A stretch of 21,038 nt of DNA from Chlamydiia bacterium (GCA_038257035.1 JBBSJT010000031.1:1-21038), one strand, 5' to 3'. Shown: positions 4,390-20,961, counted from the stretch's first letter. The notes: generated from the sequence alone by a model not told the origin. Program-made: numbers and translations.

Positions 4390-4512
4390 TTTTAACACCG
4401 AGAGTACAGAGAAAAAACAGAGAGGTTGAAGAGGTGGTGAATCTCTGCAAAGAGGAAAGAGAGAGTAACATTTACTCTCTCATGTCTTCCTCTTGTGTTC
4501 TCGGTGTTAAAA
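4390..4512. repeat. Intergenic palindromic element with internal hairpins
   Basis: 14-bp perfect terminal IR: TTTTAACACCGAGA (4390-4403) and TCTCGGTGTTAAAA (4499-4512). Internal 10-bp stem GAGAGAGTAA-cat-TTACTCTCTC (4459-4481). Confidence 0.85.
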
Positions 4513-4592
4513 AAAAATTGTATTCCAAATATCTCTCCTTTTTCAAAAAGTGACCATTTACAAGAATTAAGCTGGAGTCATTTTACTGAATC

Positions 4593-4601
4593 TGTTATAA
4601 T
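4593..4601 (+). promoter_or_regulatory. Putative extended -10 promoter element for the PP2C-desulfurase operon
   Basis: TGTTATAAT (TGn-TATAAT) about 50 bp upstream of the ATG; no clear -35. Confidence 0.4.
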
Positions 4602-4653
4602 AACTATTTTAAACTCTCGATCAGATAAGTCGAGTTAACGTGATTAAAATTTA

Positions 4654-5430
4654 ATGGTTTCAAATACAATGTCTTACAAAGTGACCGCCTTTGGCCTCTC
4701 AGATATCGGCCTTGTCAGGCAAAACAACGAAGACTACTGGAACGAACTTCCCGAAATTTTGCTTTATGTCCTTGCAGATGGTATGGGTGGTCATAGAGCC
4801 GGTGAAATCGCCTCTAGGGAAGCTGTTCACGCCTTGATGGATATATTAGAAAAAACCCTCGGATCCTCCAGTGAAGTTCTCGATCTTAACGAAATGCATG
4901 GCATTATCCATTATGCAATCGAACATGCTAACGAATCCATTTATCGCATGTCAAAACAAGATCGGGAATTAAGAGGAATGGGGACCACGTTGTGCTGTCT
5001 GCTTTTCAATCATCAAGGCCTTGTTTATGCTCATGTAGGAGACAGCCGTATTTACCGTTTCCGAAATAATAAACTGGATTTATTAACAAAAGATGATTCT
5101 TTGATTAGTCAAATGGGTGAATCAGGAAAGTTGAAAAACCCTTTAACCGAAGAAGCTCTTTATAAAGGCATTATCACAAAAGCAATCGGTACTGAAAGAG
5201 AAGTCGATCCATCCGTTAACACTACTGAAGTTAAGAACCATGATATTTATTTGATGTGCACAGACGGTCTGACAGATATGCTCTCTTTAAAAGAAATTGA
5301 AATGATTCTTAGCGATCTGCCAAATATTAAAGAAGCCGGTCAAACTTTAGTGAATCGCGCTAAAGAAAAGGGTGGGTTTGATAATATAACTGTTGTATTG
5401 ACTGAAATTGAAGAGATTCATGCATCATAA
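4654..5430 (+). CDS. PP2C-family Ser/Thr protein phosphatase (PrpC/Stp1 type)
   Basis: GLVRQNNED, LADGMGGH, GMGTT, AHVGDSRIY, LMCTDGL and GGFDNIT motifs are all present. Confidence 0.96.
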   Translation: MVSNTMSYKVTAFGLSDIGLVRQNNEDYWNELPEILLYVLADGMGGHRAGEIASREAVHALMDILEKTLGSSSEVLDLNEMHGIIHYAIEHANESIYRMSKQDRELRGMGTTLCCLLFNHQGLVYAHVGDSRIYRFRNNKLDLLTKDDSLISQMGESGKLKNPLTEEALYKGIITKAIGTEREVDPSVNTTEVKNHDIYLMCTDGLTDMLSLKEIEMILSDLPNIKEAGQTLVNRAKEKGGFDNITVVLTEIEEIHAS

Positions 5431-6538
5431 AATTTATCTTGATAATAACGCCACAACGGCAGTTGATCAAGAAACCATAGACGAAATCGTATCTGCTTTA
5501 CAAAATCTTATCGGTAATCCATCAAGTGTACATTTTTATGGCCAACAGGCCAAAGCTCGTCTGCAAAAGGCGCGCGATGAAATAGCAAAAACTCTAAAAT
5601 GTTTACCCAAAGAAATTATTTTTACTTCAGGGGCTACTGAGGCTCTTAATTTAGTTTTAAGGGGGATTCTAAATGATGAATCTCATGTGATTACATCCGA
5701 TGTAGAGCACTCAGCCGTCTTTGAAACATTGAAGCAAATTAAAGATCCAAATAACATTACTTTTTTGCCTGTCGGTGTATATGGCGCGGTGACTCTTGAT
5801 GCAGTCAAGGAAGCTTATCGTAAAGACACCAGAGCAATTGTTTTAATGGCTGTAAATAATGAAACCGGTGTTAAAACAGATATCCAATCGATCGCCGCAT
5901 TTGCAAAAGAAAAGGGAATTCACTTTGTTGTCGACGGGGTAGCTCTACTTGGAAAAGAGCCCTTTCAAATTCCGGAAGGAGTTTCTGCAATGTGTTTTAG
6001 CGGACACAAATTCCACGCTCCAAAGGGGGTTGGCTTTGCCATGGTTCGACGCACCTTAAAATTAAAACCTTATATAACAGGTGGAAACCAAGAATTTGGG
6101 ATTAGGGGCGGCACAGAGAATCTGATAGGGATTATCGCTATGCAGTCGGCTTTACGCATTTTGAATCAAAAGCTTGAAGATGCATCAAAAGAGATGAAAC
6201 GTTTAAGAGATAAATTAGAAACATCCCTCCAAAACAAACTTCCTAATGTTATTGTCAATGGTACAGGACCAAGAGTTACTAACACGACAAATCTTTGTTT
6301 CAAAGGTGTTGAAGGGGAGCTTCTTATGGCTCATCTAGATAGAGAGGGTATTGCTGTTAGTTTAGGTTCTGCTTGTGCATCAGGGGCAATAGAGCCTTCT
6401 CGTATTTTATTAAATATGGGGTTAAGTGTTGATGATGCAAGCTCATCTATTCGCATCTCGCTTAGTCGCATGACCAGCGAAGCCGAAATCGATAAGGCTA
6501 TTGATATCATAACCAAAACAGTCAACCGCTTGTTATAA
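5420..6538 (+). CDS. nifS: Cysteine desulfurase (group I NifS/IscS-like)
   Basis: IYLDNNATT, FTSGATE, SGHKFH (PLP lysine), RGGTEN and SLGSAC (catalytic Cys). ATG 5420 overlaps the PP2C 3' end, consistent with an operon. Confidence 0.93.
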   Translation: MHHKIYLDNNATTAVDQETIDEIVSALQNLIGNPSSVHFYGQQAKARLQKARDEIAKTLKCLPKEIIFTSGATEALNLVLRGILNDESHVITSDVEHSAVFETLKQIKDPNNITFLPVGVYGAVTLDAVKEAYRKDTRAIVLMAVNNETGVKTDIQSIAAFAKEKGIHFVVDGVALLGKEPFQIPEGVSAMCFSGHKFHAPKGVGFAMVRRTLKLKPYITGGNQEFGIRGGTENLIGIIAMQSALRILNQKLEDASKEMKRLRDKLETSLQNKLPNVIVNGTGPRVTNTTNLCFKGVEGELLMAHLDREGIAVSLGSACASGAIEPSRILLNMGLSVDDASSSIRISLSRMTSEAEIDKAIDIITKTVNRLL

Positions 6539-6613
6539 ATGTTTCTTTTTTGCATTTTTTTTGCTAAATTTTTCGGCCATATATACTGGTTCTTCTCGAA
6601 AGTAAAAAGTTTC

Positions 6614-19543: not shown

Positions 19544-19714
19544 GGAATTTCTCTTTCTATCTTTAACTCACACTTATAATAGAGAAGCATTATGTGTAAA
19601 TAGAAATCTTTATTCAATCTTAACTAAAGCTTTTATATGTATTTACAATCTTTTTGTATAATTGAGGTTAACAGTAAATTTTAATGTTAATATTAATTGT
19701 AATAAGGATTACTT

Positions 19715-20767
19715 ATGGGGTTAACTTCAACTGATTATCGAACAAGATTAGAAATGCAAACGGCAAAACCGATGTTTTCCGCTGGAACAAGGTATGTCAG
19801 CATAGTAAATAAAGATACCAAAAATCGGGAATCGGTGCCAATAAAAGATATTTTAGAAGCAAGTTTTGAACAAATAAACAAAGCTAACACTCCACAAAAG
19901 AAATTAGAAGCTAAAGCAATGCTTGAAAATGTAAAAAAACTTGAAAGCGGTAGTCGAAATTGCTTCATGCGCCTCTTGAACTTTTTAGGAATAAAAAATG
20001 CTTATACAAAGCGTGATAAACAAATTGAAGCATTGGAAAAAATGCTCACTCTTGATGACGTGTTTAATCCATTAATGGCAAAAGTCACGAACTTAAATGC
20101 TAACAGGGATGCATTACCTGCCTACGAATTTATCAAAATCGAGAAATCTTATGGTTCTCGCAAAATTATTATTAAAGTAAAGGAATCTGACACAAATACC
20201 ATAACAACAAATTTTGATGAACTTTATAAAACTCTCCTTAATAAAATTGATGAAGCCGAATATAGAGATGAAATTGCACTTCTTCATGAGAATTTTGAAA
20301 AACTAGCTGAACTTGATAAAGGCAGCCGTCAAGGTGCTTATGAGTGGAAAACAAGAAATACTCAAATCGAAACGATTAAAGCCAAAATTAATTTTAAGAA
20401 TCAGGAAATTAAAAGAAATGAAAGCATCCAGCCGGAACTTCTAGGAAAGAAATTAAAAGATTTAGACTTTAAAATCAAAGTCTTAGAAAGCGGCAAATTT
20501 CGTGCAACCGGAAATGAAAATCTATTAGCACTTGATCTGCAGGCTTGTAGAAAACAAAAAGCCGATTTAGAGGAAAAATTAGAAAAAGCAAAATTATGCG
20601 ATCTCCTTTATAATAAAATTTCCACTAAATCTGATTTTCGAAACAATTTGAAAAATTTCGTAGAATTATTTAAGAATGAAAAAAGTTATCGTGTGGAAGA
20701 GCTAGCTAGAATAAATGGCATCGACTTTAATGACGTTTTCGACGCACTAGATGCTGAAACAGAATAA
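19715..20767 (+). CDS. Hypothetical helical/coiled-coil protein with an internal duplication
   Basis: 350-aa ORF with AAGGA SD; K/E/L-rich; two related ~80-aa units offset by ~124 aa. Confidence 0.75.
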   Translation: MGLTSTDYRTRLEMQTAKPMFSAGTRYVSIVNKDTKNRESVPIKDILEASFEQINKANTPQKKLEAKAMLENVKKLESGSRNCFMRLLNFLGIKNAYTKRDKQIEALEKMLTLDDVFNPLMAKVTNLNANRDALPAYEFIKIEKSYGSRKIIIKVKESDTNTITTNFDELYKTLLNKIDEAEYRDEIALLHENFEKLAELDKGSRQGAYEWKTRNTQIETIKAKINFKNQEIKRNESIQPELLGKKLKDLDFKIKVLESGKFRATGNENLLALDLQACRKQKADLEEKLEKAKLCDLLYNKISTKSDFRNNLKNFVELFKNEKSYRVEELARINGIDFNDVFDALDAETE

Positions 20768-20785
20768 CTAATCCCTATATCATCT

Positions 20786-20806
20786 AAGAGGGACATTGTC
20801 CCTCTT
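20786..20806 (+). terminator. Putative terminator hairpin
   Basis: AAGAGGGAC-att-GTCCCTCTT lies 18 bp after the stop codon; the U-tract is short. Confidence 0.45.
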
Positions 20807-20918
20807 TCTATCATTCAAATCTAGCAAATTATTCGTAATAAGCTTTAAGGTGTATACTGATGCTATTTGACAGTGAAATTTGCAATGTTAATAAAGTAAC
20901 TTAATATAACATCTTCGA

Positions 20919-20961
20919 TTTTTTTACAGGATATGCAGGATCGCTAACGCGGCAGGATCGC
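20919..20961 (+). repeat. Probable left arm of another palindromic element (CAGGAT unit)
   Basis: T7-AC-AGGAT followed by GCAGGATCGC twice (20935-20944, 20952-20961). The partner arm is not within the window. Confidence 0.55.

Follow-up and report, generated by a model that had tools for sequence, protein, structure and literature searches.

Intergenic repeats that resemble miniature inverted-repeat transposable elements (MITEs) are represented in bacteria by the Correia elements (CREE), ERIC and the Rickettsia palindromic elements. Repetitive extragenic palindromes (REPs) are reported to be 20 to 40 nt long and to carry a GTAG or CGTC head (PMC3733652). Outside bacteria, three reports describe palindromic GC clusters in the AT-rich mitochondrial DNA (mtDNA) of yeast (PMC4478555), repetitive hairpin-forming elements in that of sponges (PMC2800124) and palindromic microsatellite-like repeats in that of Fusarium (PMC7218506). 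In these reports, the mtDNA elements are termed "structurally and compositionally divergent", new variants are traced to the merger and shuffling of units, and mobility is inferred from a sporadic distribution, with no enzyme known (PMC4478555, PMC2800124, PMC7218506). Here, we describe a series of intergenic palindromic repeats, labelled A to F in their order along the DNA, on a contig of an uncultured, Parachlamydiaceae-like Chlamydiia bacterium (GCA_038257035.1, JBBSJT010000031.1), the whole of which (21,038 bp, G+C content of 33%) constituted the window analysed. Our results indicate that these repeats are not ordinary terminators but, most likely, small elements of a mobile type whose family is in decay. 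To our knowledge, small palindromic repeat families are not known for the Chlamydia-like amoeba symbionts, and no description of such elements in Parachlamydiaceae was found in the open-access literature.

The inverted repeats proved to be real, and their number and length greatly exceed chance. An inverted-repeat finder set to arms of at least 16 nt, at least 80% complementarity and a loop of at most 450 nt returned 12 rows in the window, compared to a mean of 0.8 in 100 dinucleotide-preserving shuffles (sd 0.84, largest 4), and the longest arm was 56 nt in the window and 27 nt in any shuffle. A separate repeat search located long inverted repeats at A, at B and at both the outer and the inner tiers of D and E, where a sequence-only reading of this DNA had proposed palindromic arms, and the arm starts that it quoted are correctly placed except for 17548, which is a G; the T-run at this point consists of seven T at 17549-17555. 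Each tier consists of a T-tract, (A/C)AC and a purine-rich arm of short units (7-9 nt), followed by the mirrored pyrimidine-rich arm, GT and an A-tract. The tandem repetition of purine-rich units, also part of that reading, was borne out by four arrays (ACGCAGAG x3.1, ACCGCGAAG x2.1, TCTTTGCG x3.1 and GTCCTTTTA x4.7). Units of 8-9 nt recur in mirrored form on the two arms, and the 5' arm is purine-rich in 8/8 elements (purine content of 0.62-0.79). Two of the loci proposed as palindromes did not hold up: the AAGGAC/GTCCTT array at C, suggested as a sixth locus, is not significantly structured, and F, starting at 20919, contains only direct GCAGGAT repeats, with no complementary arm up to the contig end at 21038. 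The coordinates and predicted folding energies are given in Table 1.

Table 1. Palindromic elements and related loci in the window (positions counted from its first nucleotide), with RNA minimum free energy (MFE) and fold z score
Feature	Position	Strand	Description	Arms (complementarity)	RNA MFE (kcal/mol)	Fold z
Remnant / solo half-element	1097..1173	-	divergent gap, methyltransferase / CAAX-protease genes			-1.7
Element A	4385..4517	.	133-nt imperfect palindrome TTTTCTTTTAAC...GTTAAAAAAAAA	4385-4408/4494-4517 (88%)	-51	-6.2
B outer flank "leader"	6578..6622	+	CATATATACTGG, ~27 nt, then AAAAGTTTCTGATTTTTT			
Element B	6609..6784	.	(ACGCAGAG)x3 mirrored as (CTCTGCGT)x3, 54-nt loop	6609-6669/6724-6784 (61 nt, 97%); perfect 56/56 at 6614-6669/6724-6779	-117	-19.6
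Locus C	8702..8848	.	GTCCTTTTA x4.7 array; 1-2 complementary AAAGGAC copies upstream			-1.6
D (outer)	14162..14540	.	T6-ACCGCGAAG units...CTTCGCGGT-A6; inverted repeats I3, I4, I7; between convergent genes	14162-14187/14515-14540 (96%)	-173	-17.7
D inner	14250..14442	.	nested in the centre of D; T7-AACGCAAAG units, 2 in left arm, 3 in right arm	14250-14273/14419-14442 (96%; 23/24 pair)	-64	-10.4
E (outer)	17468..17715	.	T6-AACCACAGAGG...CCTCTGTGGT-A5	17470-17492/17693-17715 (83%)	-119	-13.3
E inner	17537..17667	.	59-nt-arm palindrome	17537-17595/17609-17667 (86%)	-84	-15.9
Locus F	20919..21038	+	T7-ACAGGAT; ATGCAGGAT + GCAGGATCGCG direct repeats; G9 run; cut by contig end			

By analogy, the elements would work most like MITE/BIME-type bacterial repeats (BIME, bacterial interspersed mosaic element). 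With the MITE-like repeats they share a non-coding nature, a length of about 130 to 380 bp, long terminal inverted symmetry, intergenic placement, several related and nested copies and the lack of a nearby transposase. The terminal arms are 83-100% complementary, which is trivial for any palindrome, and 5-7 related loci were seen in 21 kb, with two related copies on other contigs. They differ from such repeats in that no target-site duplication was found and no cognate insertion sequence is known, in that the arms consist of short tandem units of varying number with ends marked by T- and A-tracts, and in that one long hairpin fills most of the element instead of its ends only. The REP/BIME elements mobilised by RAYT are likewise reported to be extragenic palindromes enriched at gene 3' ends that combine palindromic units with conserved linkers and have class-variable stems (PMC3733652). 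In contrast, the elements described here measure 133-379 nt and have T-tract-(A/C)AC heads, and CGTC occurs in them only within the unit arrays of B and D-inner; membership in the REPs was rejected on size and head motif. No RAYT (Y1 transposase) and no transposase, nuclease or recombinase domain was found among the 16 open reading frames (ORFs) of the window with Pfam or among the 8 of them submitted to NCBIfam, nor is there a GxxExxY-type small nuclease gene within the window; the absence of a transposase had been correctly read from the sequence. The resemblance to the reported mtDNA elements lies in GC-richer hairpins within an AT-rich genome, a strictly intergenic location and fast-diverging families whose members merge and nest (PMC4478555, PMC2800124, PMC7218506), although those elements are organellar and mostly 30-60 bp long, whereas the present ones lie on a bacterial chromosome, are several-fold longer and have tiers and conserved linkers.

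The evidence for a family comes from the kinship between loci, which was assessed by sensitive blastn among the intergenic regions and by local alignments compared to 200 dinucleotide shuffles. The left flank of B (6581-6624) matches the reverse complement of the right flank of E-inner (17648-17691) at 82% over 44 nt, with E values of 1e-6 (small database) and 1e-5 (whole window) and a z of 15. The arms of B and D-inner are 85% identical over 34 nt (z of 11 and 6.6), the two tiers of D match each other with a z of 6.5-7.9, the right half of A matches E-inner with a z of 4.7, and B matches D with a z of about 4.5; the remaining pairs of loci, including the remnant region at 1095-1185, are weakly related (z of 3-4). 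Since the T-tract lies inside the stretch of homology between B and E-inner, it belongs to the element itself. For this reason, and because only 2 TnAn junctions are present in the window, the tract was rejected as a T(n)A(n) target site. Within D, the right ends of the outer and inner tiers together with the 8-10 nt beyond them form direct repeats (14426-14448 versus 14525-14547, 91%), and a third D start, GAAGGATTTTTTTACC, is found at 14126-14141.

The alignments also reveal a common order of parts: a T-tract, AC, a purine-rich arm, the module GACATATACTGG, some 27 nt of linker with AAAAG-TTC-GA at its end, and then the next T-tract and arm. Two conserved linker modules, GACATATACTGG and AAAAG-TTC-GA-T6, are found between tiers. 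GACATATACTGG has 3 matches at no more than 2 mismatches (1126-1137 minus, 6578-6589 plus and 17683-17694 minus, the last within the outer tier of E) against an expectation of 0.75, a number reached in 5/100 shuffles, and AAAAGYTTCWGRTTTTTT has 3 matches against 0.22 expected, reached in 0/100 shuffles; both were derived from these loci, so the counts illustrate the homology and are not an independent test of it. A nhmmer profile of the linker modules recovered only its five training members, with the next match at an E value of 0.15. Different loci are homologous in their tiers, arms and flanks and form one family. The sequence-only reading had described a system in which structure, not sequence, is conserved while the units differ between loci; the units do differ, but homology between one locus and another extends over flanks, arms and two short modules.

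Selection on an RNA fold is expected to leave an excess of wobble pairs and a strand bias among the mismatches of a stem. The gapless stem stretches contain 219 Watson-Crick pairs, 5 G.T, 3 A.C and 10 other mismatches, with neither an excess of wobble-compatible mismatches nor a strand bias. Indels restricted to one arm were also found: D-inner has 2 units on one arm and 3 on the other, and the right arm of D carries a 34-nt tandem duplication that is absent on the left (Tandem Repeats Finder period of 34 x2.0, 14457-14523). Unit number thus differs from arm to arm within a copy, and it probably varies between related copies as well. The lack of a wobble bias and the one-arm indels speak against self-templating as a means of keeping the two arms matched. 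Of the earlier proposal of a "non-autonomous mobile or self-templating" system, what remains is one non-coding, probably non-autonomous dispersed family, tiered or nested and with related copies on other contigs, while the self-templating part is not supported by stems that decay through mismatches and one-arm indels.

The copies can be arranged in a series of decay, from B, which is perfect (56/56), through D and D-inner (96%), E-inner (86-89%), A (88%) and the outer tier of E (83%) to the remnant at 1097-1173 and C, which are unstructured. A tiered organisation is seen in D, E and probably B. The inner tier of E is better paired than the outer (86% versus 83%) and B has a perfect core within decayed outer flanks, while in D the two tiers are equally paired (96% each for the outermost arms), and pairing is poorer only in a possible degenerate third layer. 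This series fits successive insertion or growth at the centres of older copies followed by neutral decay. It is fairly probable, in our judgement, that the contig contains one family of non-coding composite palindromic repeats, represented by no fewer than five clear copies (A, B, D and E, with the inner tiers of D/E) and by remnants. We would also rate as rather likely a lineage-restricted, tiered family of the MITE/BIME type, whose 8- to 9-nt unit cores change by slippage and whose copies are at different stages of decay. Such a family would have spread by transposition or copy-insertion of some form, with a preference for the centres of resident copies and for the gaps at gene 3' ends, and replication slippage would then have turned over the unit arrays until each locus had a unit of its own. 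The complementarity within a locus would mainly reflect the youth of the copy, perhaps aided by occasional intrastrand template switching, and not selection for an RNA fold. Blocking of convergent read-through, protection of mRNA 3' ends and the supply of promoter-like hexamers would be plausible side effects.

Several observations weigh against a mobile family. No consistent target-site duplication was seen by eye in the 30-nt flanks of 7 elements, whose true ends are uncertain, and the short flanking repeats that do occur (GCA at D-inner and TGATT at E) are too short to count. In the absence of target duplications, a single-strand, hairpin-dependent route is possible, but this is speculation. 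No transposase was found in the window, and the homology of A, the remnant at 1097-1173, C and F to other loci is weak or absent (z of 4.7 or less). The placement of a strong element in every convergent gap is equally well accounted for if elements are selected for a role at gene 3' ends. The evidence for a family of copies comes from one 21-kb contig plus two matches to spurious ORFs on other contigs, and these two could be orthologous copies in related strains instead of transposed ones.

The two outside matches were obtained by translating the elements and comparing them to predicted proteins, so that copies elsewhere would appear as spurious ORFs. A plus-strand frame of B (6568-6768) matched P0012, a 41-residue prediction present on 6 contigs (the longest of 64,096 bp) from the sources jgi and ena. 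It is identical to B at 21/35 positions, with IFSTQRRRDAE and KRAKARKE exact and a single 8-residue insert, a convincing pairwise alignment, although the database-wide E value is only 2.4. P0012 covers the left arm, the inner arm and the loop of B, and its downstream peptide matches the loop of B in a shifted frame. An insert of 8 residues corresponds to 24 nt, which would fit three extra 8-nt units, and the inserted peptide reads like more units of the ACGCAGAG type, as judged from peptide and not from DNA. The contig statistics of P0012 were matched by none of the best 120 of 6,743 NifS homologues, which weakly suggests that this copy probably does not lie beside a NifS orthologue. A minus-strand frame of E (17417-17641) matched P0135, of 47 residues, at 74% over 31 residues with a database-wide E value of 2.6e-4. 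P0135 spans the inner arm, the loop, the second arm and the A-tract flank of E, and its tail matches the flank on the other side of E-inner better (17/22). The other two matches of the E-frame search, P0133 and P0134, were rejected as long repetitive proteins unrelated to the element. The B pseudo-ORF gave one lead of 0.75 in a protein atlas, to an unnamed and uninformative cluster, and B and E had no match in a plasmid collection searched in distant mode.

The range of the family was also examined in three loci of two distant Parachlamydiaceae metagenome-assembled genomes (MAGs), 64 kb in all, which were located through an alignment of 11 homologues of the 1702-residue protein encoded in the window; a search with this protein by itself gave no locus. 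No comparable inverted repeats were present in these 64 kb (one weak inverted repeat each), and no homology to the elements was detected there (best E value of 0.002, for a 17-mer). The sole strongly folding region of the three loci is at 20776-20950 of L001, where 150-nt windows reach -51 to -55 kcal/mol. The 1702-residue protein is 27-29% identical to its homologues in the two MAGs, which are titled Parachlamydiaceae, and closer relatives exist at the protein level (83% for P0002 and 70% for P0003 with the 1702-residue protein; 93-79% for NifS). Some of the closest named homologues of the cysteine desulfurase are labelled Parachlamydiaceae.

Bidirectional intrinsic terminators have the order A-run, stem, T-run. 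They resemble the present elements in being GC-richer hairpins between convergent genes with A- and T-runs alongside. In the elements, however, the T-run lies 5' of the stem and the A-run 3' of it, directly where the stem begins and ends in every tier, and the stem is closed by pairing between the two runs; since the elements are palindromic, this polarity holds on both strands. The sole exception is the additional outermost pairing layer of E-inner, A5...T4-5, which has a terminator-like order and results from pairing that continues beyond the T- and A-tracts (AAAAAGTTCAGG-T7 ... A6-TCTGAAGCTTTT). The stems of the elements are 19 to 56 bp or more, far beyond those of terminators. A scan for terminator-like structures did not list the element stems apart from a sub-hairpin in A and a 5-pair hairpin in the left arm of D, and the scan for canonical terminators gave 16 hits against 12.4 +/- 3.6 expected, which is no excess. 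The reversed polarity means that an ordinary bidirectional terminator, the counter-case that the sequence-only reading had set for itself, does not account for these repeats, and membership among the intrinsic terminators was rejected on polarity and stem length. A separate short, near-perfect palindrome, AGAGGGAC-ATT-GTCCCTCT, lies at 20786-20806, 19 nt past the stop codon of the ORF at 19715-20767; in contrast to the long elements, it resembles the small stem of a conventional terminator, and it does not reach the T-run criterion of the scan.

A less ordinary function at gene 3' ends, in which the hairpins act as unusual bidirectional terminators, insulators or protectors and are kept by selection on structure, is the best of the alternatives to a mobile family, but we consider it unlikely. 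A strong element is present in 3/3 convergent gaps (B, D and E), in 1/5 divergent gaps (A, while another has the remnant) and in 0/3 tandem gaps, where C is weak. E nearly touches the stop codons on both sides, with 8 nt between the first of them and its start and 9 nt between its end and that of the convergent gene, its inner tier has the outermost layer that resembles a bidirectional terminator, and the genes of the window are not otherwise served by an excess of canonical terminators. Selfish intergenic repeats that are tolerated at gene 3' ends, for their part, usually show this distribution. The U-tract before and the A-tract after the stem on both strands and at every tier boundary speak against a 3'-end function, as do stems much longer than those of terminators, the location of A and the remnant in divergent, promoter-side gaps, the mismatches without wobble or strand bias and the arm indels. 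Moreover, the homology between loci reaches into unpaired flanks and loops, which selection on structure alone does not predict.

It is doubtful that the elements are small-RNA genes, in which a module consisting of TTTAC[AC], about 17 nt and TATACT would drive a short leader and a long hairpin RNA. A promoter scan listed this module as TTTACC-17-TATACT on the minus strand at 17713-17685, directed into E-inner, where the extended minus-strand hairpin ends in a U5 run, and conservation between loci is highest in the segment that connects the -10-like box with the T-tract (B versus E-inner). The corresponding module of the remnant precedes the start codon of the methyltransferase gene by about 55 nt. 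On the other hand, the 17-nt spacing is found in E only, compared to about 15 nt for B and 20 nt for the remnant, and promoter-like hits are no commoner in the window than in shuffles (84 versus 76.6 +/- 9.8). Rfam gave 0 matches on either strand of the whole window, and the mismatches in the stems have no strand bias.

A long shot of comparable standing is a structure-propagating system new to bacteria. Hairpins would be mobilised as single-stranded DNA by a hairpin-specific enzyme that cuts at the T-tract-AC boundary and would preferentially enter the apexes of resident hairpins, which would build up onion-like tiers; intrastrand template switching would re-homogenise the arms while the 8- to 9-nt units turn over and every locus acquires its own unit, and some copies might be long hairpin RNAs expressed from TTTAC-N17-TATACT in the amoeba host.

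Palindromes could also have been born on the spot by hairpin-primed or template-switch synthesis, as self-templating minisatellites with no transposition and no common ancestor. The mirrored tandem units, the perfect arms of B and the better pairing of the inner tiers of E and B would suit such an origin, but the homology of flanks, linkers, arms and loops between loci shows shared descent, and the arms are out of step in D-inner (2 versus 3 units) and in D (the duplication on one arm), so that we regard it as very unlikely.

Recombination sites of the attC type have R'' (RYYYAAC) and R' (GTTRRRY) boxes and, when folded, extrahelical bases and an unpaired central spacer. A cluster of such sites without an integrase is highly improbable here, even though variable sequences with conserved folds occur several times within 21 kb and AAC...GTT stands near the ends in 3/7 elements: A, B and D-inner begin with ...TTT(C)AAC and end with GTT(G)AAA.... 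In D, E-inner and F the head is AC or ACC and not AAC, the first box position is T and not a purine, and B pairs 56/56 with neither extrahelical bases nor an unpaired spacer. The lengths of 133-379 nt are mostly above the attC range, the "cassettes" would be multi-gene and of mixed gene orientation, and the window contains no tyrosine recombinase. Membership was rejected on extrahelical bases, size and integrase. Assembly or amplification artefacts, to which the end of the contig in a repeat and G9 region might point, are scarcely credible, given that the elements lie solely between ORFs and never within them and that related copies are predicted from independent contigs of other sources (P0012 from jgi and ena, and P0135).

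The finding is at present descriptive and concerns one contig. If the decaying mobile-type family were abundant genome-wide, it would explain the fragmented assemblies of this lineage, could serve as a marker for strain typing and would give the GC-cluster and hairpin elements of mitochondria a counterpart in bacteria. Judging from the perfect 56-bp stem of B, the organism tolerates long palindromes, which bears on its hairpin-processing and repair functions.

Turning to the single loci, A stands between divergent genes for a DUF4116 protein (minus) and a PP2C phosphatase (plus), and B between convergent genes for a NifS-like protein (plus) and a 100-residue ORF (minus). The remnant reads, on the minus strand, GTTTCTGA, T9, AC, a purine-rich arm and then GACATATACTGC, and contains the GACATATACTGG module at 1126-1137 (minus) with 1 mismatch. 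Its 14-mer at 1160-1173 is the reverse complement of 6609-6622 in B, and it aligns with the arms of E and E-inner, with weak homology to the right arm of E (z of 3.6). C is at most a degenerate relative, having no T-tract start and no significant homology to the other loci. In F, no inverted repeat was found, the fold is weak and no second arm precedes the contig end. The loop of D-inner contains two small AT-rich palindromes of its own, one at 14309-14333 (TGCAAAG/CTTTGCA) with a polarity opposite to that of the main arms and one at 14341-14369 with a T7A4 centre.

The 16 ORFs of the contig are of bacterial type, and no tRNA was found in the window. Pfam matched ORFs for a methyltransferase, a CAAX protease, a serpin, a DUF4116 protein, a PP2C phosphatase, a NifS-like cysteine desulfurase, a bestrophin-like protein, a Ni-superoxide dismutase and a bicupin, and left 6 ORFs unmatched, among them the 1702-residue protein. 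This last ORF (window 8983-14091; 9131-13603 in L001 and 7494-11984 in L002) has no NCBIfam match either, and its family was seen in Parachlamydiaceae-like sequences only, with two paralogues on separate contigs of one MAG. The genes for the PP2C phosphatase and the NifS-like cysteine desulfurase (4654-6538) overlap by 23 nt (5408-5430) if a TTG start is used, and one homologue, P0081 (642 residues), carries both a PP2C and an aminotransferase-V domain, so that the pair is fused in some relative. The serpin (2117-3346) is full-length, with an E value of 3e-110 to Pfam Serpin, lies directly 3' of the CAAX protease gene and starts with a hydrophobic segment, possibly a signal peptide. The Ni-superoxide dismutase homologue (8099-8698) is extended at its N terminus by hydrophobic sequence and at its C terminus has a tail rich in His and Asp, encoded at about 8643-8698. 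At the start of the contig there are GC-rich hairpins, CCCAGG...CCTGGG at about 12-40 and GGTCT-GAA-AGACC at about 61-75, and a G9 run is located at 20966-20974, 65 nt from the contig end; both ends resemble more repeat-type sequence at which the assembly stopped.

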